Under the pieces are notes generated by a model that worked only from the letters and a program-made list of their open reading frames with translations, did no database searches and was not told where the DNA came from. Of a stretch of DNA of 33,534 nt, positions 5,214-30,500 are shown piece after piece (within the stretch, counting starts at the first letter, position 1; each line of letters starts with the position of its first letter). The stretch is from Nitrospirota bacterium. GTDB lineage: Bacteria > Nitrospirota > Thermodesulfovibrionia > Thermodesulfovibrionales > JdFR-85. The position numbers were made by a program, and so were the translations under genes. The stretch covers positions 1 through 33,534 of the forward strand of contig WFTX01000073.1 of NCBI GenBank assembly GCA_015485235.1. Reading direction: 5' to 3'.

Positions 5214-6236
5214 ATGATGAATACGTTTAAAGGAGCCATTATGTCAGCACTTTTGGTGCTTAGTGCAATCTTTCTGTTTGTCTCCTGTGCTACACCACCT
5301 GAACGGATTGAAGAGAGTGAGTATGTCTGGCCCCTTCCGCCCGAGAAACCAAGGGTGAGATACGTGAAGAGCCTCTGGGGTGAGGAGGATGTCAGGAAGT
5401 CGGCTCCATCAGATTTCATAGTCGGCAAGGACCCTTCCACAGACCTCTTCAAACCCTATGGTCTGGCAACTGATTACTCTGGACGCATCTTTGTTACTGA
5501 TACTGTGAGAAGGGTGGTGTTTGTTTTTGATGAATTGATGGGGGATCTGAAGTTCCTGGGACTTCATGATCTGCCGCTTGGTGTTCCTGCTGATGTGGTT
5601 GTTGATCAGAAGGAGAGGGTCTTTGTGTCTGACGCAGGGAGGGACAGAATAGTTGTATTTGATCTGGATGACCGGATCCTCAATCAATTTGGACAAGGTG
5701 TGCTTGATAATCCTGCCGGAATGGCGATTGACGAGGGTCGCCAGAGACTCTATGTTGTATCAACTCATACCCACTCAGTTGAAGTGTTTTCCCTTGAGGG
5801 GAAACATCTTTTCAGATTTGGCGGGCATGGTGCAGGTCCCGGGCAGTTCAACTATCCCATGGACATAGCTGTAGGCCCGACAGGTGATCTCTATGTGGTG
5901 GACAGTGCCAACTTCAGGGTGCAGATTTTCACAAGTGAAGGTGATTATGTCAGGGAGTTTGGTACTCTTGGAACAGGGCCCGGACAGTTCTCAAGACCTA
6001 AAGGGATTGCTGTTGATCAGGCAGGAAGGATATTTGTCACCGACGCCTCGTTCAACAACTTCCAGATATTCAACGATATGGGGCAGCTCCTTCTCTTTGT
6101 CGGGACGGGCGGGGTTACAGGCCCGGGCGAGTTCTCACTTCCAGCGGACATCGAGGTGGACGGCCAGGGGAGAATATACGTAGCAGATCAGCTCAACAGA
6201 AGGGTTCAGGTCTTTGAAATGATCAGGGATAAATAA
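5214..6236 (+). CDS. NHL-repeat (six-bladed beta-propeller) lipoprotein, paralog 1
   Basis: The listed ORF starts at 4950 and overlaps the cytochrome gene. AAGGAG lies 6 nt before the ATG at 5214, which gives a lipoprotein signal (MMNTFKGAIMSALLVLSAIFLFVSC|A). NHL repeats recur, for example GPGQFNYPMDIAVGPTGDLYVVDSANFRVQIF, GPGQFSRPKGIAVDQAGRIFVTD and GPGEFSLPADIEVDGQGRIYVAD. The VWPLPPEKPRV motif follows the lipobox. Confidence 0.9.
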   Translation: MMNTFKGAIMSALLVLSAIFLFVSCATPPERIEESEYVWPLPPEKPRVRYVKSLWGEEDVRKSAPSDFIVGKDPSTDLFKPYGLATDYSGRIFVTDTVRRVVFVFDELMGDLKFLGLHDLPLGVPADVVVDQKERVFVSDAGRDRIVVFDLDDRILNQFGQGVLDNPAGMAIDEGRQRLYVVSTHTHSVEVFSLEGKHLFRFGGHGAGPGQFNYPMDIAVGPTGDLYVVDSANFRVQIFTSEGDYVREFGTLGTGPGQFSRPKGIAVDQAGRIFVTDASFNNFQIFNDMGQLLLFVGTGGVTGPGEFSLPADIEVDGQGRIYVADQLNRRVQVFEMIRDK

Positions 6237-6270
6237 AATCCTAAATTCTAAACACTAAGCCCTAAACAAA
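6236..6270 (-). repeat. left inverted arm (GATTTAGG-type module, reverse orientation) flanking four-helix-bundle gene 1
   Basis: aaatcctaaattctaaacactaagccctaaacaaa can pair with 6664-6698 at 28 Watson-Crick pairs plus 1 G-U over 35 positions (hand alignment). Confidence 0.7.
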
Positions 6271-6275
6271 TACAA

Positions 6276-6629
6276 ATGAGCAGAAATTCAAAACAGTATG
6301 ATCTGGAGGAGAGAACATTCATCTTTGCAAAAGAAGTAATCGACCTGGTAGATGATGTATCAAAAAGCCTGGTTAACCTGGAGATTGGTAAGCAACTTGT
6401 CCGTGCTGCTGGTTCTGTAGGTGCAAATCATATTGAAGCGAATGAATCTTTGAGCAAGAAGGATTTTATAATGCGGATAAAGATATGCAGGAAGGAATCC
6501 AAGGAGTCAAGATACTGGTTGAATTTGCTTAAATATAGGGATGGAATGGATGGCCGGAGGGATGCCCTTATTCAGGAAGCTACAGAACTGATGAAGATAT
6601 TTGGCGCCATCCTGGAGAAAAGCAAATAA
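6276..6629 (+). CDS. four-helix-bundle protein (TIGR02436 / Pfam 23S_rRNA_IVP family; Avd-like)
   Basis: 117 aa. Family-typical layout: FEERxFxFAxxV-like N-terminus (YDLEERTFIFAKEVIDLV), QLVRAAGSVGANHIEANES, FIMRIKICRKESKESRYWLNLL. Confidence 0.88.
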   Translation: MSRNSKQYDLEERTFIFAKEVIDLVDDVSKSLVNLEIGKQLVRAAGSVGANHIEANESLSKKDFIMRIKICRKESKESRYWLNLLKYRDGMDGRRDALIQEATELMKIFGAILEKSK

Positions 6630-6639
6630 TCTGCACAAA

Positions 6640-6698
6640 TTGTTTTGAGATTTGAATTTTGGAATTGTTTAGGATTTAGTAATTAGAAATTAGAATTT
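6640..6698 (+). repeat. GATTTAGG-type module (M4) copy; right inverted arm of four-helix-bundle cassette 1
   Basis: ttgttttgagatttgaattttggaattgtttaggatttagtaattagaaattagaattt is colinear with 13967-14027, 16613-16671 and 17588-17627. It ends about 8 nt before the AGGAGG of the next gene. Confidence 0.75.
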
Positions 6699-6719: not shown

Positions 6720-7799
6720 GTGAATAGAATAATGATACTGCTTATGTCCTTTCCCGTTGTCTTTGCCCTGCTCCTTACAGGTTGTGTCTCCCAGCAGAAA
6801 GAGGTAAAGAAAAAAACGGAACCTTTGAAGGAGATTGTCTGGCCTCCCCCCCCTGAAAAACCAAGGGTGAAATGGGTGGCCCAGTACAGGGGAAGCGACG
6901 ATGTCGAGCAGGGACCGGATGTGTTGAAGTTTCTTGGAGAGCAGAGGATTGTACGACTCAGACGGCCTCAGGGAATAGTAGCTGACAGGGATGGAAATAT
7001 ATATGTCTCGGATATTGCAACTCCTCCAAGAGTGTTTGTTTTTGATTTCAAGAACAATAAATTCAGGGTGTTTGGCAGAAAGGGTATAATGAAGTTAAAG
7101 ATTCCACTGGGACTTGCAATTGACAATGACAGGAGGCTTCTTTTTGTTGCTGACAACGGCCACAAGGCCGTAATTGCCCTGGATATAGATTCTGATTCCA
7201 TTAAGTTCGTTATAGACAGTCAAAGGGGTGGTTTTAAAAATCCCAACTCGGTGGCAGTCGATCCTCAAAGAAAGCGCATATATGTCTCTGACTCGAAACT
7301 CCATGTTGTCAAAGCGTTTAGCTATGATGGCAATCTTCTTTTTACTATCGGAAAGGGAAAGCGGACAACAGATGATGATGGTTTTAACGTTCCAGCCTCC
7401 GTTTCTGTTGACAGAGAAGGAAATGTGTACGTCGCCGATATGTTCAACAGATATATAAAAATCTTTGACTCCAATGGCCAATTTGTCAAAAAAATAGGTT
7501 ATGGTGTTGGTACGGGACTCGGGAACTTTTCCAAACTCGTTGGAGTTGCAGTTGACTCGGAAGGACATATATATGGACTGGATACTGACTTCTGTAATTT
7601 CCAGATCTTTGATCAGGATAATAACTTTCTTCTTTTCGTAGGAGAGCCCGGGACCAGGGTCGGCAAGTTTCTGCTGCCAAAGCGGATTTACATAGATGAG
7701 AACGACATGATTTATGTAAGTGATACCTTTAATCACAGGATTCAGGTTCTTCAGTATCTCAGAGACGAAAGCAGTAAAAATAGGTCAGGACAGCAATGA
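6720..7799 (+). CDS. NHL-repeat lipoprotein, paralog 2
   Basis: GTG start with AGGAGG 8 nt upstream. The signal and lipobox read MNRIMILLMSFPVVFALLLTGC|V. The VWPPPPEKPRV motif is present. NHL repeats include PQGIVADRDGNIYVSD, PNSVAVDPQRKRIYVSD, PASVSVDREGNVYVADMFNRYIKIF and LVGVAVDSEGHIYGLD. Confidence 0.9.
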   Translation: MNRIMILLMSFPVVFALLLTGCVSQQKEVKKKTEPLKEIVWPPPPEKPRVKWVAQYRGSDDVEQGPDVLKFLGEQRIVRLRRPQGIVADRDGNIYVSDIATPPRVFVFDFKNNKFRVFGRKGIMKLKIPLGLAIDNDRRLLFVADNGHKAVIALDIDSDSIKFVIDSQRGGFKNPNSVAVDPQRKRIYVSDSKLHVVKAFSYDGNLLFTIGKGKRTTDDDGFNVPASVSVDREGNVYVADMFNRYIKIFDSNGQFVKKIGYGVGTGLGNFSKLVGVAVDSEGHIYGLDTDFCNFQIFDQDNNFLLFVGEPGTRVGKFLLPKRIYIDENDMIYVSDTFNHRIQVLQYLRDESSKNRSGQQ

Positions 7800-11834: not shown

Positions 11835-13822
11835 AGGGGCTTTCTCGCATTGCTGATACATTCAGAATGAACCCATCTGGCTGGTTTTGTCAGCCAGTGG
11901 TTTTTTTTATTGCTTTATTGTTTCTTTTCTTTGAGCCAGCTCTGAGCAACATTGTTTCCGAGAAGGGAAATTTCTCTCAGGCTGGCATGGCTGAAGCACG
12001 TTCAATGGGCGGCGAGTCCGAAATCAGGTGGCTGTTATACAAGAAATATCTGATCTATGGAGATATCGGACTGGAATATGAGAAACAAACGAGGGAGACT
12101 ACTCAGGATGATGTAACAACAAAGTATGACGCTGACAGTTTTGTTCAGAGATACAGGGTGAATTTTAAAAGTTACATTTATCATCCCAAACTGGTTACTT
12201 ATACCCTGGGAGTAGACTTGAACCTGACTTCAGGAGAACTTAACAGGATAGATCTCAAACGGTATTTTATGAATCTTAAGTTTCTCAGAACCAAGCCATT
12301 CAATTTTGAAATCAGGGCTGAATATCGAGATGGTGAGGACTATACCGGTTTCAGCCAAGGGGTTACGATGGTTTATATCAGGAAGAGAAAGAAAATAGGA
12401 TTCAGAAACATGCGGGAATATACTCTATGGCTCAACCAGCAGAGACTTAACAGAAGAAACCAGAACCAGAACCAGAATCAAAATCAGAATCAGAACAGAA
12501 ATAATGCCAATCTTAATCAGGAAAATCTGAACCAGGAAAAAGAAAATCAGAATACAAACAGAAATGCTAACCAGAATATTATGAACAGGACCATTCCCAA
12601 ACCAAAGAGAAGTCTTATCGACAGGGTGCTTCCTGTAATATTTATATTTGATTTTGACCGCATTCAGAGCTCAACTGATGATGGTGATACAACTGATTAT
12701 CTTGGGACACTACGCATGAAGGGAGATTTCAAAACTGAAAAAACCCGCACCAACTATTTTCTGAATTTTTCCTATTATGACCTTACCAGTGACTTTAGTG
12801 AAGATTCCACTAAATTTACTTTCTCCGCAAAATCACTGACTACAATCAATAAAATAGATAGAATGGAGTGGGAAGCCCGCTATAGCCTCAGGGAAAAAAG
12901 TTCATCTGAAAATTCATATAGTATTGATGGCACCTACTCGGGTTATTTCAAGGATAAGATCTGGAATTATCAGTTGAATCTAAGATATTATCAAAGAGAA
13001 GGAGATACAAGCTATTCATTAATCGGTTATGCCGGAAGAAAAGATGAATACAAGAACTTCCATCTTTTGTACCGTCTGGGTGCCAAGTACCAAAGGGATG
13101 ACCTTATCAATAAGGATAATATAGGGGTTTTTGGTACCATAACGGCTAACCGGAGACTTTCTGCTCGTCAGTCGCTTCTGCTTTCCTCAAGACTGGATGT
13201 TGGAACCGAAACAAACATACTGAATGCAAGGGCGGAAACGAGGTATATACTTTCCAGTAAACTTCTTTTATTTGGAAGCTATGACTTTTTTACCGGTACT
13301 GGAAATTATACTTATGAACTTGGTGGTGCTGCTGATGACCGAACACGGCACCAGATCAGAATTGGTCTGAATGGAAACTACAGGTCTGTATTTTTCCATT
13401 CGATTTTGTCCTACTTGTATCAAGATAGTAGTAACTCCATACTTTGGGATAACGCAGCGAGATGGGTCTTTTTCAACAGGGTCAGGTTCACACTCGGTCT
13501 CAGGGCAGAATGGCATGACACCACGAATGCTGGTGATAATACGGAAGGCTTGAATAATACAGATAAGGAAACTACCATCTCCGTATATAATCTTATCATG
13601 TTTTCTCCATGGTACAGATCGGCTGTCAGAATATACAGTCGCTATGAAAAAACCATTAATGGTAAAGAGTCAACGCATTACAATGTAAAACCTGAGTTTA
13701 TTTGGAGGATTCGGAGATTGTATCTGAGTATGAGATACGAATATATTTATGACAAAGTCCTTTCTAACGAGATCACAGAGCAGAAATTCTATGTGCGTCT
13801 CACAAGGCCCTTCTGGTTTTAG
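11831..13822 (+). CDS. predicted outer-membrane beta-barrel protein (663 aa) with N/Q-rich low-complexity insert
   Basis: An N-terminal hydrophobic signal (VVFFIALLFLFFEPALS) is present. Long runs of alternating aromatic/polar strands occur (YRVNFKSYIYH, YFLNFSYYDL, YQLNLRYYQ, RYEYIYD). The C-terminus ends in an aromatic residue (RLTRPFWF), as in BAM substrates. The start is translationally coupled to the upstream ORF. Confidence 0.8.
   Translation: MKGLSRIADTFRMNPSGWFCQPVVFFIALLFLFFEPALSNIVSEKGNFSQAGMAEARSMGGESEIRWLLYKKYLIYGDIGLEYEKQTRETTQDDVTTKYDADSFVQRYRVNFKSYIYHPKLVTYTLGVDLNLTSGELNRIDLKRYFMNLKFLRTKPFNFEIRAEYRDGEDYTGFSQGVTMVYIRKRKKIGFRNMREYTLWLNQQRLNRRNQNQNQNQNQNQNRNNANLNQENLNQEKENQNTNRNANQNIMNRTIPKPKRSLIDRVLPVIFIFDFDRIQSSTDDGDTTDYLGTLRMKGDFKTEKTRTNYFLNFSYYDLTSDFSEDSTKFTFSAKSLTTINKIDRMEWEARYSLREKSSSENSYSIDGTYSGYFKDKIWNYQLNLRYYQREGDTSYSLIGYAGRKDEYKNFHLLYRLGAKYQRDDLINKDNIGVFGTITANRRLSARQSLLLSSRLDVGTETNILNARAETRYILSSKLLLFGSYDFFTGTGNYTYELGGAADDRTRHQIRIGLNGNYRSVFFHSILSYLYQDSSNSILWDNAARWVFFNRVRFTLGLRAEWHDTTNAGDNTEGLNNTDKETTISVYNLIMFSPWYRSAVRIYSRYEKTINGKESTHYNVKPEFIWRIRRLYLSMRYEYIYDKVLSNEITEQKFYVRLTRPFWF
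12458..12496 (+). repeat. in-frame hexanucleotide microsatellite (AACCAG/AATCAG)n encoding (NQ)n inside the OMP gene
   Basis: The sequence reads aaccag aaccag aaccag aatcaa aatcag aatcag aac. The wider N/Q/E-rich tract runs to about 12576 (NQNQNQNQNQNQNRNNANLNQENLNQEKENQNTNRNANQN). Confidence 0.85.
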
Positions 13823-13840: not shown

Positions 13841-14027
13841 GACAGGTTAAGGTTGAGGCCGAGGTTGAGAAAGAAAGCGTGTAGCGTATAGCGGATAGGA
13901 AAGGATGACAGGTTAAGGAGATCAGTGTGAATCTGTTTTTTCAGTGTTCATCAGTGTCCTATAAAGTTTTGGATTTAGGTAATTTGAATTTGTTTCAGGA
14001 TTTAGAGATTAGGATTTAGGATTTGTT
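13841..14027 (+). repeat. intergenic modular repeat, copy D (M1 GGTTGAGG - M3 GCGTGTAGCG - M1 - M2 CAGTG - M4 GATTTAGG)
   Basis: The module sequences are gacaggttaaggttgaggccgaggttgag, gcgtgtagcgtatagcggatagg, gacaggttaaggag, atcagtgtgaatctgttttttcagtgttcatcagtgtcc and ttttggatttaggtaatttgaatttgtttcaggatttagagattaggatttaggattt. Module order is the same as in copies E and F. Confidence 0.8.
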
Positions 14028-14044
14028 TTATGAAAGGAGTCTTG

Positions 14045-15007
14045 ATGAAAAACAGTATATCTGTCTTAGTTGTTTTGTTGATGATTCTCGTATCTCCCCT
14101 CAGCAGCCTTGCTGGAGTGAAAGTTGTTGCCAGGGTTAACGGTGAACCCATAACCGAGCGGGATCTGATGATTGCGGTTCAGAAGAAGATTCCCATGATA
14201 AGTTTTCACAGAAACGTCTCTAAGGAAAAGCTGATGGCTATAAAAAAGGATGTTCTCCAGGATCTGATAAACGATGAACTGATTTACCAGGATGCGAAGG
14301 GAAAGGTGGCCGTTTCGGAGGAGGAACTTGAAAAGGAGATGGAGAAGGTAAGAAAGAGGTTCAAATCTGAGAAGGACTATAAACAGGCGATCGTGAAGTC
14401 AGGCACGACTGAATCGGCCTTGAAGGAGAGATACAGACGGGAACTTATGATCAGGAAAATGAAGGAGAAGGAAATTTACAGAAAGGCAGAGGTGACCGAG
14501 GCTGAGGCAAGAAGGTACTATGAACAGAACAAGGGTCGATTCCTTGCGCCTGAAAAACTGAAACTCTGGGAGATTTTCCTTGAGGTTCCGCCTAACGCTA
14601 CCAGGGAAGAGAGGGAGGCGAAGAGGAAAAAGGCGGAGGAGATACTCCAGAGAATCAGGAAGGGTGAGGACTTTGGCCGGCTTGCGTGGGATTATTCTGA
14701 AGACCGCTATAAATACAAGTCCGGGGAATTAGGGTATATCCACCGTGGAAGGCTCAATCCTGAAGTGGAAAGGGCACTCAAGAATGTTAAAGCGGGTGAG
14801 ATAACAGATGTTATTGAAACAATCTACGGTTATTACATCTTCAAGGTGGGTGAGATTGTTCCGCCGAAGCAGCTCTCCTTTGATGAGGCCAAGAAAAAAC
14901 TTATCCGCCAGTTGCGGGAGTCACGGGCAAAAAAATTAAGAGAAGAGTACTTAAAGAGACTGAGGAAGAAGGCGAAGATAGAGATATTCATGGAAAAAAC
15001 AGGTTGA
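14045..15007 (+). CDS. SurA-like periplasmic chaperone / parvulin-type (PpiC) peptidyl-prolyl cis-trans isomerase
   Basis: AAGGAG lies 6 nt before the ATG at 14045; the listed ORF begins at 14030. The signal is MKNSISVLVVLLMILVSPLSSLA|G. A SurA_N-like helical region is followed by a rotamase core (LWEIFLEV...GEDFGRLAWDYSED...GELGYIHRGRLNPEVERAL...GEITDVIETIYGYYIFKV). Confidence 0.88.
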   Translation: MKNSISVLVVLLMILVSPLSSLAGVKVVARVNGEPITERDLMIAVQKKIPMISFHRNVSKEKLMAIKKDVLQDLINDELIYQDAKGKVAVSEEELEKEMEKVRKRFKSEKDYKQAIVKSGTTESALKERYRRELMIRKMKEKEIYRKAEVTEAEARRYYEQNKGRFLAPEKLKLWEIFLEVPPNATREEREAKRKKAEEILQRIRKGEDFGRLAWDYSEDRYKYKSGELGYIHRGRLNPEVERALKNVKAGEITDVIETIYGYYIFKVGEIVPPKQLSFDEAKKKLIRQLRESRAKKLREEYLKRLRKKAKIEIFMEKTG

Positions 15008-15028
15008 GGTTAAGGTTGAGGTCGAGAA
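15001..15028 (+). repeat. GGTTGAGG-type module (M1); left inverted arm of four-helix-bundle cassette 2
   Basis: aggttgaggttaaggttgaggtcgagaag overlaps the PPIase stop codon. 15002-15022 is the perfect reverse complement of 15469-15489 (21/21). Confidence 0.85.
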
Positions 15029-15029
15029 G

Positions 15030-15395
15030 TTGTACAGGGATTTCAGAGAAATGCCAGTCTGGCAAACAGCGATGCAGGTAGCAACAGAAATTTATGAATT
15101 GACAGAAGAATTACCCCGTAAGGAGGATTTTTGCTATACAACACAGATAAGGAAGGCTGCCCTGAGTATCCCGGCCAATATTGCAGAGGCATTTGGTCGT
15201 GAGCATAGTAAAGATAAAATTAACTTTTATTATTTTGCCAGGGGTTCGATAATGGAAACCATCAGTCACCTGGAGTACGGAAAGAGAGTTAATTATTTAA
15301 GTGAAGAAAGTGTCAGATCAATAAGTAATTTGCTTGAAACACTGGCTGCAGACCTGAACAAGTTGATAAAATCTCTAAGAAGTAATAAAGGGTGA
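15030..15395 (+). CDS. four-helix-bundle protein (TIGR02436 / 23S_rRNA_IVP family; Avd-like), TTG start
   Basis: The N-terminus YRDFREMPVWQTAMQVATEIYELT matches the family's YxDLxVWQKA-type start, which supports the TTG at 15030. Further matches: IRKAALSIPANIAEAFGR, FYYFARGSIMETISHLEY. Confidence 0.85.
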   Translation: MYRDFREMPVWQTAMQVATEIYELTEELPRKEDFCYTTQIRKAALSIPANIAEAFGREHSKDKINFYYFARGSIMETISHLEYGKRVNYLSEESVRSISNLLETLAADLNKLIKSLRSNKG

Positions 15396-15399
15396 TAGC

Positions 15400-16518
15400 A
15401 TGAGAAATTGTATTCATCATATACCAGTGAAACTTTCAACTTCTGCCGTTACCTTTTTCCTCTCCTTAACCTCAACCTTAACCTCAACCTTGGCCTTAAC
15501 CTTGGCCTCAACCTTGGCCTTAACCTTCGGTTTATTCTCCTGCTCTCCCCCGGTCCACCACGCCCAGATTGATGATTCTTACAGGGGAAAGCTCGTCTGG
15601 CCGCCACCACCTGAGAAGCCCCGGATAGAGTATCTCTGGTCCTTTTACAAGTTTCTGCCGGAAGGCAGAAACCTTGCCGACTATGTGGCAGGTGAACAGG
15701 GCGGCCTTGATGATCCGGCAACACTGCCCTATCTGATGAGACCGTTCTCGCTTTTTGTCAGAGAAGGCAGGATATATATTGTCGATCAGGGCCCTCCCCG
15801 GATTACAGTGCTAAATATGAAGACAAGGGAGGTGTCTCACTTCGGGGTTTCCGGTGAAGGCAAACTTGTTTTTCCAGTGGGCATAGTGGTTGGTGCCGAT
15901 GGGACCGTATATGTGAGCGATGCTGAGACAGGCAGGGTGAACAGGTATGACCGGCAGGGGAAGTTTATCGGATATCTCCCGGAAAAGATGGCATTCAGGA
16001 GACCGACAGGCCTCGGGATTGATTCTGAAGGCAATATCTATGTTGCCGATACATCAGCACACAGGATAAGGATATATTCACCGGACGGGAAACTTATCAG
16101 AAAGTTTGGTAAAAGGGGCAGCAAGGACGGGGAACTGAACTTTCCCACTCACCTCTGGGTCAAGGGTGAAAAGATATATGTCACAGATGCGATGAATTTC
16201 CGTATCCAGATATTCAACAAAGAAGGGCAGTTCCTGGGGAAGTTCGGACAACCCGGTGATACCTATGCCGATCTTGAAAGGCCCAAGGGTGTTGCAGTTG
16301 ACTCCTTTGGCCATATCTATGTGGTTGATACCCTTCAGGCAAGGGTGAAGATCTTTGACGAAAAGGGGAGGATCCTGCTCTTCTTCGGGGAAGAGGGCCG
16401 TTCCCCCGGAAAGTTCATAATGCCTGCTGGCATATTTATAGATGACAGTAATACAATATATGTTGCAGATACTTACAATATGAGGGTCCAGGCATTCAGG
16501 CTGCTGGACGGGAAGTAA
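15400..16518 (+). CDS. NHL-repeat lipoprotein, paralog 3; signal-peptide h-region encoded by a reversed M1 simple repeat
   Basis: The lipobox is TFGLFSC|S and the VWPPPPEKPRI motif follows. NHL repeats include PVGIVVGADGTVYVSDAETGRVNRY, PTGLGIDSEGNIYVADTSAHRIRIY, PKGVAVDSFGHIYVVDTLQARVKIF and PAGIFIDDSNTIYVADTYNMRVQAF. Residues LSLTSTLTSTLALTLASTLALT are translated from 15461-15538. Confidence 0.88.
   Translation: MRNCIHHIPVKLSTSAVTFFLSLTSTLTSTLALTLASTLALTFGLFSCSPPVHHAQIDDSYRGKLVWPPPPEKPRIEYLWSFYKFLPEGRNLADYVAGEQGGLDDPATLPYLMRPFSLFVREGRIYIVDQGPPRITVLNMKTREVSHFGVSGEGKLVFPVGIVVGADGTVYVSDAETGRVNRYDRQGKFIGYLPEKMAFRRPTGLGIDSEGNIYVADTSAHRIRIYSPDGKLIRKFGKRGSKDGELNFPTHLWVKGEKIYVTDAMNFRIQIFNKEGQFLGKFGQPGDTYADLERPKGVAVDSFGHIYVVDTLQARVKIFDEKGRILLFFGEEGRSPGKFIMPAGIFIDDSNTIYVADTYNMRVQAFRLLDGK
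15461..15538 (-). repeat. reversed GGTTGAGG-type module (M1); right inverted arm of four-helix-bundle cassette 2, lying inside the NHL paralog 3 ORF
   Basis: The sequence ctccttaacctcaaccttaacctcaaccttggccttaaccttggcctcaaccttggccttaaccttcgg has 6-nt periodicity. It is complementary to M1 copies at 15001, 13841, 16521 and 17496. Confidence 0.85.
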
Positions 16519-16520
16519 TT

Positions 16521-16671
16521 TTAAGGTTGAGGTTGAGGTCAAGAGCGTGTAGCATGAAGCGGGTAGCGTATGGCGTGCGGGAAGATGGACAGATTTAAGT
16601 CCGTGTCCAGGGAGTTTGGAATTTTGGTATTTGAAAATTGTTTAGAATTTAGAGAGTAGGATTTAGAAATT
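16521..16671 (+). repeat. intergenic modular repeat, copy E (M1 - M3 - M2-like - M4)
   Basis: The module sequences are ttaaggttgaggttgaggtcaagag, gcgtgtagcatgaagcgggtagcgtatggcgtgcggg, gacagatttaagtccgtgtccaggg and gtttggaattttggtatttgaaaattgtttagaatttagagagtaggatttagaaatt. Confidence 0.8.
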
Positions 16672-17481: not shown

Positions 17482-17495
17482 GGGGGGAGAAGATA

Positions 17496-17627
17496 GGGTG
17501 AGGTCAAGGTCGAGGTTGAGGTTGAGGTCGAGGTTGAGGTTGAGGAGAATCTGTGATGGTCGGTTTGTTTCAGTGTCATCTGTGTGCTATTTGGTTTAGG
17601 ATTTAGATATTCGGATTTAGGATTTCT
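17496..17627 (+). repeat. intergenic modular repeat, copy F (long M1 - M2 - M4)
   Basis: M1 is gggtgaggtcaaggtcgaggttgaggttgaggtcgaggttgaggttgaggag, with nine GG dinucleotides at 6-nt spacing. It is followed by gaatctgtgatggtcggtttgtttcagtgtcatctgtgtgc and tatttggtttaggatttagatattcggatttaggatttc. Confidence 0.8.
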
Positions 17628-27584: not shown

Positions 27585-30500
27585 ATGAGAGCTAAAATGG
27601 AGATGAACAGGACAGACGGAACGATGAGGACGGAGATCATGGACATAAACCAGAGGATGCAGGGCACTCTCCCTGCATCCTCCAACGAAATCAACGAAAT
27701 CAACCAAATGAACGAAATCAACGAGATCAACGAGATGAACCAAATAAACCAAATCAACGAAAGTGAGGTGAGGACGGTCATGGGAGGAATCTTCGGTAGG
27801 AGGAATCATAAAACTAAGAACGTCGAACTCAGAACGTGGAACGTTGAACGTTTTTCCTTTGTTATTCTCCTGGCTGTCCTGGCCATGGTGATGATGTTTG
27901 GAGGAGCAATACCGCCTGCATCTGCGTATAATGCCGGTGATGTGATCTATGTAAATGCCACAGTGAGCAACTATTGTCCAAATGGTTCGCAATTTGACCT
28001 GATAGTGACCTTGACAGACTTCTATGGAAATCCTGTCACCGGACTTTCCAGTGATAACAAAAACTATGGATTAATTCTAAAGAATATTAAAGATAGTGCC
28101 AAGGCGAATGTAAGTTACACAGGTTTTATTGTTAATACGCAGAATACAAACGCCTGGACTGAGATTGGTAATGGCCAGTATAAGCAGACAGGGACTATCA
28201 CAAGCGGTACAGATCCTGTATATTTTGATCTTGAATACCGAGACCCTAATAATACTAACTACAAGATGAAAGCAGCAGTTATGATAAATCGTCAGGGGGC
28301 GTGTTCAGGTACAAATCCCGGCATTCTCGACTCTGCGCCTGATTATACCTATTACCCCATCCCGACTGGTACAGTGGTTATTAAAGCCCGACTGAAAAAC
28401 CAGGACGGTACAGCCCATGCAGGTGCAAACTGCCCAACGGGTTATGATGATGCAAACAAATGGGGCGGTGGTACTGCTGATACCTTATATATTAACAACC
28501 TGAAAGATGTGAATAATAACAATGCTACCTCATGGTCAGTTACAGGCTGTACAGATAATGGGGATGGTACATATGATATCACATTAAATTACGATGTTAC
28601 CGGGACAAATGATCCGGAAATATGGTTGCCCGAACTGAGGTACGATTGGGATAGTGCTGCTAATATAAAAATGACCACAGTGGCCGCCTTCGAGGTTAAC
28701 TCAACTCAGGCACCTACCAATCCAACGGGTACACCTCCGGCAAATCCAGGATGCCCTGAATGTACAGCGCCTGCTGATACCACACCTCCCACCGAAGGCA
28801 CACTGTCCATCAGTCCCGATGATGGCACATACACAGGCCCTGATTTTACCATCACAGAAGACTTTACAGACAATGAGTCAGCCGTTACCTCCTGTGAATA
28901 CACCATTGATGGTGGAACAAACTGGGCTGCCGGAACGGTAAGCGGCACGGGGCCCTATACCTGTACAGCCAATGTGACAGGTGCAACAGGGACCGTGACA
29001 GTACAGATGAGAGCAACCTCTGCTGGAGGTACAAGTACTCCAACAAATACAATAACAAGAACTGTGGACAGCACTCCTCCGACAGACGGCACTCTTACGG
29101 CCGTTCCTGGCAATACACAGATAAGCCTGTCTTGGACTGCTGCTTCTGATACCGAGAGCGGGCTTGATGCAACTAATCCTTATAAACTTGTAAGGGCAAT
29201 TGGAGCAACTCCCCCGGCTGACTGTACTGGTGCAGCCCTGTACCAGGGCACTGCACTGACTTTCACAGATACAGGGCTGACTAATGGGCAGCAGTACTCT
29301 TACAGGGTCTGTGCATACGATGCCATGGGTAATGTGTCAGCGGGCGCCACTGCTTCAGCAACGCCTCAGGCATGCCAGGCTACTGCACCGACAGACCTTG
29401 CGGCAACCAATGTCACTTCAAGCAAGGTTGACCTTACATGGACTTACGATGGAACCAACAACGATTACTACAGTGTATATCGTGATGGAGTTCAGATAGC
29501 AACGAATATAACAACGGGCAGTTACTCAGATACGACTGTCTCCCCTAATACTACTTACAACTACACTGTCCGTGGTTACAACAACGCAGGTACATGTGAG
29601 AGTGGCGACTCGAACGTGGTGAACGTCACCACGCCAGCAGGCCCCACATATACTGTCACTTCCTGCTCCGACTGTCATGACTATCCGCCGACAGATGCGA
29701 CGGGAGGGAGGAATACCCCCGTTGGAGCGGTTATAGGTTCCCATGACATTCATGTAAACCAGAACGGGCTGGCCTGTACAACGTGCCATATCGACAATGG
29801 GACGAACCTTGCTCACAGGAATAACCAGATAGACATCAATGCAAGTATCCAGGGTGGCAGTTATTCCACCACTGATCCGGACTTTCCATCCCAGGATATT
29901 GAGGACGGTACAGGACTCGGCAGTTGTGTCACCACGAACTGTCATGGCTCTTCATCCCCTGTCTGGGGGAATAATACTGCGACACCGACCTGCTACAAGT
30001 GCCACGGTACCCAGGCAAACGGCAATAACGCCCCGCCTGTCGACACGAACGGCGATACAGCAGCAACAGACCCTCAGGTCGGCGCTCACCAGGCACACCT
30101 CCAGGCTACGGACAACTATTCAAGCCCGATAGCCTGTAACGAGTGCCATACGGTACCAACCAATGTGTTTGATACTGGACATATTGACTCTGCCCTACCT
30201 GCTGAACTCACCTTCGGAACCCTTGCAACCACGAATGGTGCGACTCCGTCCTATACTGGCGGGACATGCTCAAACACCTACTGTCATGATGAAGCCAACT
30301 TCAAGAATGCCTGGGGTACTGGTACGCCTCCGACATGGAACGACACGACTTATATACAGGGTACATCGGCCGACTGTTCCCAGTGCCACGGCTACCCGCC
30401 CGGCGGCGGCCATCCTGCTAATGCTACCAACTGTACATCCTGTCACAGTCATGTGAATTCTACAAATGATGGATTCACTGATCCCACCCTGCATGTAAAT

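Follow-up and report, generated by a model that had tools for sequence, protein, structure and literature searches.

We analysed a 33,534-nt stretch of DNA (the window: contig WFTX01000073.1, positions 1 to 33,534) from a Nitrospirota bacterium, whose metagenome-assembled genome (MAG, here G000) comprises 2.69 Mb in 344 contigs and derives from a hydrothermal-vent metagenome. Positions 15001-15527 of the window probably represent a foldback cassette of the intervening-sequence (IVS) type, which bears an open reading frame (ORF) and lies outside rRNA, at the junction of a peptidyl-prolyl isomerase (PPIase) gene and an NHL-repeat gene. It is very likely that the gene and its two arms form one heritable unit, an IVS-type cassette. 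The founding members of the protein family encoded by the cassette, PF05635, are located inside 23S rRNA intervening sequences that are excised by RNase III (PMC4990558), and a stem of the RNase III type would therefore be the natural reading of the arms.

Arms, stem and gene at 15001-15527

The cassette consists of three parts.

15001-15029, + strand: left (5') arm, made of AGGTTR hexamers, in which 15001-15022 form the perfect core of 22 nt (repeat search, TRF, duplex energy)
15030-15395, + strand: cassette gene, encoding a 121-aa four-helix-bundle protein, PF05635 23S_rRNA_IVP / TIGR02436 (Pfam, TIGR02436, PDB, alignment)
15464-15527, + strand: right (3') arm, 10.7 units of (YAACCT), in which 15469-15490 form the perfect core (repeat search, TRF, orthologue comparison, duplex energy)

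A repeat search of the window revealed that 15001-15022 and 15469-15490 are exact reverse complements. The perfect inverted repeat of the original prediction is thus real, with a core of 22 rather than 21 nt. The longer imperfect pairing that had been expected from 6-nt periodic arms was also observed, as the segments 15001-15029 and 15462-15490 are complementary over 29 nt at 90%, and Tandem Repeats Finder (TRF) detected hexamers in both arms, (AGGTTG)4.3 at 15001-15026 and the 10.7-unit array at 15464-15527. The periodicity of the arms gives the left arm several registers in which to pair with the right array; with G-U pairs counted, at least five of these provide runs of 22-26 consecutive pairs. 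The duplex energy of the two arms was calculated as -46.8 kcal/mol. In the minimum free energy fold of 14990-15540 (z = -2.9), the arms close a loop of ~440 nt. This loop contains the TTG-initiated 121-aa ORF (15030-15395) and NHL codons 1-23 (ATG at 15400), in agreement with the enclosed content described previously. As in ORF-bearing IVSs, inverted repeats at 15001-15527 enclose an ORF and permit a long stem.

The left arm contains the PPIase stop codon (TGA, 15005-15007) and a Shine-Dalgarno-like GAGGT (15018-15022), located 7 nt 5' of the TTG start of the cassette gene. The stem would cover both, together with NHL codons 22-43 in the right arm; the overlaps with the PPIase stop and the NHL signal-peptide codons were correctly placed in the original prediction. 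A masking effect of the stem on the NHL ribosome-binding site and start, also proposed there, is contradicted by the position of the two: both (about 15387-15402) are situated in the loop, 60 nt 5' of the right arm.

The cassette protein matched PF05635 (23S rRNA intervening-sequence protein) with an E value of 5.5e-34 and TIGR02436 (four helix bundle protein) with an E value of 2e-34. Its nearest solved structure is the pentameric XCC0516 (PDB 2gsc, E 7e-17), and the alignment showed the complete set of family-invariant residues. The TTG start aligns with the ATG of the orthologue in G028, a complete genome from another family of the order.

Avd, the accessory component of diversity-generating retroelements (DGRs), has a homologous four-helix-bundle fold (PMC10053308). 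Assignment to a DGR was rejected. The Avd model NF033474 gave E 2.7e-6 and 27.6 bits against a cut-off of 80 bits, none of the large ORFs of the window contains a reverse transcriptase domain, and the window holds no template/variable repeat pair. An insertion sequence (IS) or miniature inverted-repeat transposable element (MITE) was likewise rejected: no transposase is encoded by the cassette or by the window ORFs, no near-identical copies were found, and comparison with empty sites revealed no recognisable target-site duplication. A MITE-like phase may nevertheless have existed, given the ORF-less hairpins with shared termini in G028 described below. No Rfam family was hit at gathering score in the window or on the other PF05635 contigs. 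The cassette does not lie inside 23S rRNA, at helix 25 or 45, but at a junction of protein-coding genes, and no 23S gene was found in the source MAG.

Specificity of the layout and its arm unit

TRF identified 1178 short tandem arrays in the source genome, including 96 (AGGYYR)n arrays, six of which are in the window; chance pairing therefore had to be excluded. For each of 2175 crude genes, the strongest local inverted repeat linking the 175-nt flank on the 5' side to that on the 3' side was scored, which gave a median of 8 and a 99th percentile of 13.5. The top five scores (22.5, 22, 21, 21, and 19) corresponded exactly to the five complete PF05635 genes of the genome, a placement with a probability of ~1/C(2175,5) = 2.5e-15 by chance. 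The cassette gene at 15030-15395 scored 22 (rank 2/2175). Each of the five genes is associated with a different 6-8 nt tandem unit. The next ranks were occupied by two IS elements with genuine terminal repeats, a transposase associated with repetitive extragenic palindromic (REP) sequences, and a few ordinary genes in array-rich contigs. The position of the IS elements just below the PF05635 genes indicates that the test detects real mobile-element ends. The stem-ORF-stem layout is specific to the PF05635 family.

This layout, which had been proposed for two genes of the window, is borne out by the flank test, by relatives, and by other phyla, and it recurs in the window itself.

6236-6698, + strand: cassette 1, a PF05635 gene (6276-6629) between inverted heptamer-type arms (6236-6276 / 6658-6698) with units like AAATCCT (profile and repeat searches)

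The product of the 6276-6629 gene matched PF05635 with E 2e-14, and cassette 1 is directly 5' of an NHL lipoprotein gene (6720-7799). Since BLASTP detected no similarity between the two cassette proteins of the window, these are two cassettes that occupy sites of one kind independently and are not a designed pair. The proteins fall in different clades, and the arm unit differs from clade to clade.

Among relatives of the source genome, 15 of 27 loci reached the genome's 99th-percentile flank score. Homologues with 50-65% identity were detected in MAGs of Bacteroidota, Chlorobiota, Ignavibacteriota, Cloacimonadota, WOR-3, and Nitrospirota. In these other-phyla loci, gathered with the single cassette protein as query and thus biased towards the close clade, 20/33 reached the 99th-percentile score, as compared with 6/109 control ORFs of the same loci.

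In a tree of 64 family members, one well-supported clade (SH-aLRT 95) had AGGTTR hexamer arms in 17/20 rows, as compared with 0/44 elsewhere. This distribution corresponds to 4 changes on the tree, as compared with 15.2 in shuffles, and none of 500 shuffles was as low. Other clades have arm units of their own (CAGAATA/CAGGAGT heptamers, TAGTGAA heptamers, and several octamers). These results contradict the proposal that selection acts on the architecture and not on the sequence of the arms. The unit is inherited or constrained together with the protein, as it tracks the clade at a divergence that would scramble unconstrained DNA. The polarity of the arms relative to the gene is fixed across cassettes. 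In 46 cassettes, the sense-strand arm mismatches comprised 109 G-U and 72 A-C pairs (p 0.007; 23 vs 10 when counted by cassette), a bias that weakly supports selection at the RNA level.

Genomes that bear the hexamer-armed clade often contain many matches to the array pattern (G000, 274; G028, 67; G046, 119; G052, 102), as compared with 0-2 for a reversed-pattern control. Such arrays are almost absent from 57/61 family mates of G046 and from 35/41 relatives of G000. The clade gene itself was found in 2/41 relatives and in 1/61 genomes of a Bacteroidota family. A strict dependence of the arrays on the clade gene was rejected, as four genomes without the gene are rich in arrays (G001, 99; G023, 35; G039, 30; G064, 62).

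A link to rRNA was found in G028.

72-nt 23S rRNA insert, ORF-less: locus L102 (G028:C1:2104600-2105100) and the twin 23S gene (G028:C1:2236487-2239523)

In G028, the two 23S rRNA genes exceed the model length by ~110 nt. The helix at positions 1207-1226 of the large-subunit rRNA model bears at its tip, in each gene, a 72-nt AGGTTR/YAACCT insert of the form ACAGGTTAAGATTGAGGTTAAGGTTAAG-loop-CAGCCTCAACCTTAGCCTTAACCTGT. Based on the flanking conserved sequence (...CCGAAGC... / ...GGUAGGGGAGC...) in comparison with E. coli 23S rRNA, we take this helix to be helix 45, which is also an IVS site in Salmonella. The predicted fold of the insert is a hairpin of 31 pairs (-40 kcal/mol, z -7.4), and in the sense strand its G-rich arm comes first, matching the cassettes. 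An insert at helix 45 predicts fragmented 23S rRNA in the G028 organism. In the Coxiella S23p IVS, located at helix 45, the ORF lies in a stem-loop, with variable-copy tandem heptamers (GACAGAT) directly before the start codon, and RNase III cuts at the first repeat, thereby removing the ribosome-binding site (PMC4990558).

At least eight further ORF-less hairpins of cassette-type arms lie between genes of G028 and have the termini ..ACAGGTT ... AACCTGT.. in common. Those at loci L089-L100 are composed of (AGGTTR)3-4, an A/T-rich loop of 20-40 nt, and (YAACCT)3-4, often with an A-run on the 5' side and a T-run on the 3' side. Two of them (L092 and L100) resemble the window in that an NHL paralogue has its signal peptide encoded by the 3' arm. 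The source genome has one ORF-less hairpin of the same arms (C311:1226-1303). Pre-existing empty array hairpins were also considered as a common target in the source genome and were rejected, as its close inverted repeats are ordinary terminator-like hairpins except for that at C311:1226-1303.

The window also contains solitary arrays of the unit.

13844-13867, + strand: solitary sense-strand (AGGYYR) array, 22 nt past the stop of an outer-membrane-like ORF; alternative partner of the right arm (array scan, duplex energy)
16524-16541, + strand: solitary (AGGTTG) array, 6 nt past the NHL stop (TRF, array scan, duplex energy)
17495-17545, + strand: solitary 8.5-unit (AGGTTG) array, 14 nt past the cytochrome stop; longest complement of the right arm (TRF, array scan, duplex energy)

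These three (AGGYYR)n arrays are on the sense strand, just past the stops of successive operon genes. Genome-wide, 87/96 arrays are outside genes; those between co-directional genes comprise 36 sense and 10 antisense arrays, mostly 6-83 nt past a stop. Dispersed 6-9 nt tandem repeats are known as cyanobacterial short tandemly repeated repetitive (STRR) sequences and as GGGAATC-type heptamers near stops in Xanthomonas and Nostoc (PMC4692102). Our solitary arrays resemble these repeats in being intergenic, in favouring co-directional pairs, in lying tens of bases from the stop, and in their sense bias. The features of STRR-like repeats (intergenic 6-9 nt arrays near stops with a strand bias) are found in the solitary arrays and in the left arm, and not in the right arm. 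Unlike the Xanthomonas and Nostoc repeats, the AGGYYR unit is not similarly prone to form G-quadruplexes, and the STRR and heptamer papers draw no link to PF05635 genes or inverted pairs.

Several other repeats were observed. Ordinary genes (adenylylsulfate-kinase-like, phosphomannomutase-like, and glycosyltransferase) lie between inverted arrays of 7-9 nt units at C92:1-4400 and C326:1500-2450, with scores below those of the PF05635 genes; inverted arrays are thus not strictly limited to the family. A MITE-like element of ~210 nt with 30-nt terminal inverted repeats (TCCGGGGGTGTGCTCTGAATTTTTCATTAT) occurs in ~25 copies in the source genome (e.g., C107:1805-1997, C144:9224-9438, and C243:17792-18003), and pairs of it flank larger ORFs at two places. 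At C190:1268-1909, a REP-associated tyrosine-transposase-like gene lies between REP-like hairpins (AAAATTGCCACTTCGTAAGTGGCAATTTTT). In the window, hexamer and 15-mer arrays (AACCAG...) at 12458-12540 encode an NQNQNQNQ / NLNQENLNQE low-complexity stretch in a 663-aa outer-membrane-like ORF. A 9-nt array (CAACGAAAT, 8.9 copies) at 27683-27762 is near the 5' end of a 1416-aa multihaem cytochrome ORF, and its unit family AAATCAACG forms several further arrays in the genome.

Neighbouring genes and the filled and empty junction

The cassette is bordered by two protein-coding genes, and the rest of the window comprises a multihaem cytochrome / NHL cluster.

14030-15007, + strand: upstream gene, encoding a SurA-like PPIase (Pfam; empty sites L037 and L041)
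15400-16518, + strand: downstream gene, encoding an NHL-repeat beta-propeller lipoprotein, with its start codon in the stem loop (Pfam; orthologue N-termini; G028 orthologue)

The right arm is translated in frame as NHL codons 22-43 (LTSTLTSTLALTLASTLALT), which form the hydrophobic core of the predicted lipoprotein signal peptide. The lipobox cysteine, Cys48, is preceded by 47 residues, ~22 of which are arm-encoded, as compared with ~13-15 residues in cassette-free orthologues. Reads of the source run include a 3-nt deletion variant at 15414. On the other side, the last five codons and the stop of the PPIase gene extend into the left arm and differ from those of the empty-site orthologues.

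Since the whole NHL/cytochrome cluster was not found in the same-genus genomes G001 and G002 at E 1e-30, more distant genomes served as empty sites. At the G024 junction, the NHL gene starts within the end of the PPIase gene, with overlapping start and stop codons (...KIEIY* / MMRALAILIIVFIASC); in G026, a 90-nt spacer separates the PPIase gene from the NHL start MKRFCVLLLLIASAC. Neither PPIase-NHL junction contains a cassette, arms, or a long leader. Relative to these two genomes, the window has gained everything from '...KIEIF' to the lipobox.

The closest homologue among 40 relatives, with 57% identity, is that of G028. There, the outer-membrane-like ORF, the cassette gene, the NHL gene, and the cytochrome gene follow one another in the same order as in the window. 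The arms belong to the same hexamer family (AGGTTAAGGTCAAG... / ...CTTAACCTTAACC), the NHL start codon is likewise within the loop, and the right arm likewise encodes the signal peptide (LTLTLSLS). The G028 cassette gene (L008 1501-1905; G028:C1:927809-928213) has an internal TAG at codon 89 and hence looks like a pseudogene, with its arms still recognisable.

Three other metagenomes from vents or mats (runs X2-X4) contain a strain with a PPIase gene that is 86-96% identical and diverges from the window at 14985. Its PPIase ends in ...KIDILE*, after which come a different sequence with an (AGCGTAT)-type array and no cassette; coverage did not extend to the window cassette or to this NHL gene.

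Proposed mechanism, alternatives and significance

The cassette shares most of its organization with the ORF-bearing 23S IVSs of Leptospira and of Coxiella burnetii, in which the protein is named S23p (PMC4990558). It encodes a PF05635 / S23p protein, its ORF is in the loop of a long stem of inverted terminal repeats, its 5' arm is composed of short tandem repeats directly before the start codon as in Coxiella, its ribosome-binding site is in or beside the stem, its distribution is sporadic and suggests horizontal transfer, and its hexamer arms occupy the presumed helix 45 of 23S rRNA in a genome of the same order. It differs in lying between protein-coding genes of an mRNA operon, in having a hexamer instead of the heptamer unit of Coxiella, and in that one arm is translated in the signal peptide of a neighbour. 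RNase III excision has been shown for the rRNA elements, and we infer it for the cassette. The ORF-less 23S rRNA IVSs of Salmonella and other bacteria, known from helices 25 and 45, are reportedly extended hairpins at the helix-45 tip and are removed by RNase III. In G028, both the 72-nt insert and the ORF-less hairpins between genes resemble these, and are built from the arms of the window cassette. Unlike the window cassette, the Salmonella-type elements are gene-free, and their arms have not been described as tandem hexamer arrays.

We propose the following mechanism. Only 22 and 4 nt separate the PPIase, cassette, and NHL genes, and a scan for promoters and terminators between them detected nothing above shuffles, so the three genes are probably co-transcribed. 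In the co-transcript, the arms would form a 22-29 bp duplex in any of several registers, and this duplex would be a substrate for RNase III, as in the rRNA IVSs; the gene for this enzyme (rnc) is present in the source genome (C272). For an RNase III step in this mRNA context, our confidence falls slightly short of even. Pairing would sequester the ribosome-binding site of the cassette gene itself, and would compete with ribosomes that end on the PPIase stop or traverse NHL codons 22-43, which would melt the stem. A cut would detach the upstream message and remove the 5' end of the NHL message, in which case the element would not be a neutral passenger but a brake or insulator that acts post-transcriptionally. 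The hydrophobic core of the NHL signal peptide may have arisen when the right arm, once inserted, was adopted in frame.

Several observations weigh against this interpretation. The best complement of the right arm within the window is not the left arm (-46.8 kcal/mol) but the array at 17495-17545 (-90.4 kcal/mol), the strongest of three other arrays of the window with which it can pair; competing long-range pairings are therefore possible within one transcript. Because (AGGYYR)n arrays are common, mostly solitary, and usually located on the sense strand just past stops, the left arm alone looks ordinary. Only DNA metagenome runs matched the window sequence in a search of sequencing runs, so that stem formation and cutting are deduced from the DNA. 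A cut in the right arm would split NHL codons 1-22 from the remainder and would be costly; the retention of this arrangement in two families of the order suggests that cutting is rare, regulated, partial, conditional, or absent here. The element might thus act as a brake or, alternatively, be largely domesticated at this site. Neither a transposase nor a clear target duplication nor near-identical copies were found for the cassette, and the PF05635 paralogues of the source genome are 23-39% identical or not alignable. The family samples are non-random, the G-U bias is modest and comes from cassettes that are phylogenetically related and not independent, and the four array-rich genomes without a gene of the hexamer-armed clade loosen the tie between the arrays and the gene.

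The arms might instead act mainly at the DNA level, as the terminal repeats of a foldback mobile element whose inverted arrays form a cruciform or hairpin recognised by a host or cassette factor. The RNA stem would then be a by-product and the ORF-less hairpins non-autonomous derivatives. We regard this as somewhat unlikely, and it is compatible with action at the RNA level. Its appeal derives from the patchiness of the clade within the two sampled sets of relatives and its presence, as a single clade, in several phyla, from the filled and empty sites, from the dispersed G028 hairpins with their common termini, from the use of two unrelated site types (rRNA helix 45 and gene junctions), and from the flank test, which also picks true IS elements and the REP-associated transposase just under the PF05635 genes. 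However, there is no recombinase in or next to the cassette and no recognisable target-site duplication against the empty sites, the low identity of the paralogues indicates that no recent transposition burst occurred, and a DNA-level role does not predict the fixed arm polarity or the sense-strand G-U bias. A further alternative, that two abundant hexamer arrays happened to fall on opposite strands around a short gene, draws on the abundance of these arrays in the genome and the window, and is very improbable. Chance juxtaposition was rejected by the genome-wide flank test, in which the five PF05635 genes were all on top, and by conservation of the same arms around the G028 orthologue and around clade members in other phyla; moreover, antisense arrays inside genes are rare (6/96, some within spurious ORFs).

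The inverted symmetry could also be secondary, with the arms serving as putative binding sites at which a pentameric four-helix-bundle protein recognises its own arm unit and the dispersed arrays, in RNA or DNA. The co-variation of arm unit and clade across phyla, at distances where neutral DNA would be scrambled, fits such recognition, as do the tens of extra arrays that clade-bearing genomes often hold against the nearly array-free relatives of G000 and family mates of G046. In the DGR literature, the homologue Avd is a nucleic-acid-binding pentamer, which is suggestive as well. Its homology is noted in PMC10053308. On the other hand, the array-rich genomes without a clade gene show that the gene is not needed for array persistence, and the arrays persist in G028 although its copy carries the internal TAG. 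Co-inheritance alone accounts for the co-variation, and binding data in the family are limited to DGR members. We consider this explanation quite unlikely. An IVS-type foldback cassette outside rRNA remains our preferred reading of 15001-15527.

PF05635 genes have been noted inside cas loci (PMC3936711, PMC10910872); in a literature search, we found no paper tying non-rRNA PF05635 genes to inverted tandem-array arms. What appears to be new here is the hexamer-armed clade in several phyla, the occurrence of its arm family in the presumed 23S helix 45 of a same-order genome, the comparison of filled and empty sites at a conserved junction, and the probable recruitment of an arm as signal-peptide coding sequence.

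Intervening sequences in rRNA, and the ORF conserved in them, have been on record since the early 1990s, and neither has an established function or mode of spread. Here, the IVS module, a gene with periodic inverted arms, was found living in an mRNA operon. The tie between unit and clade across phyla, the helix-45 arms in a relative, the filled and empty sites, and the co-opted arm all provide handles on the problem. The locus makes it possible to approach whether such an element provides an RNase III site outside rRNA, whether the protein recognises its own repeat, and whether the dispersed arrays are cassette-derived. A broader and unlikely interpretation is that PF05635 proteins and short tandem arrays constitute one system, in which each clade reads its own unit, the armed gene is the autonomous copy, and hairpins and solitary arrays spread from it to helix 45, gene junctions, and the 3' ends of genes. 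If so, a large part of the 6-9 nt tandem repeats in bacterial DNA that lack an explanation would be traces left by these elements, and the 30-year-old intervening sequence protein would be the sequence-specific nucleic-acid partner of the arrays. For annotation, it should be borne in mind that long signal peptides encoded by repeats, and arrays that follow stop codons, may in some cases be remnants of such elements.

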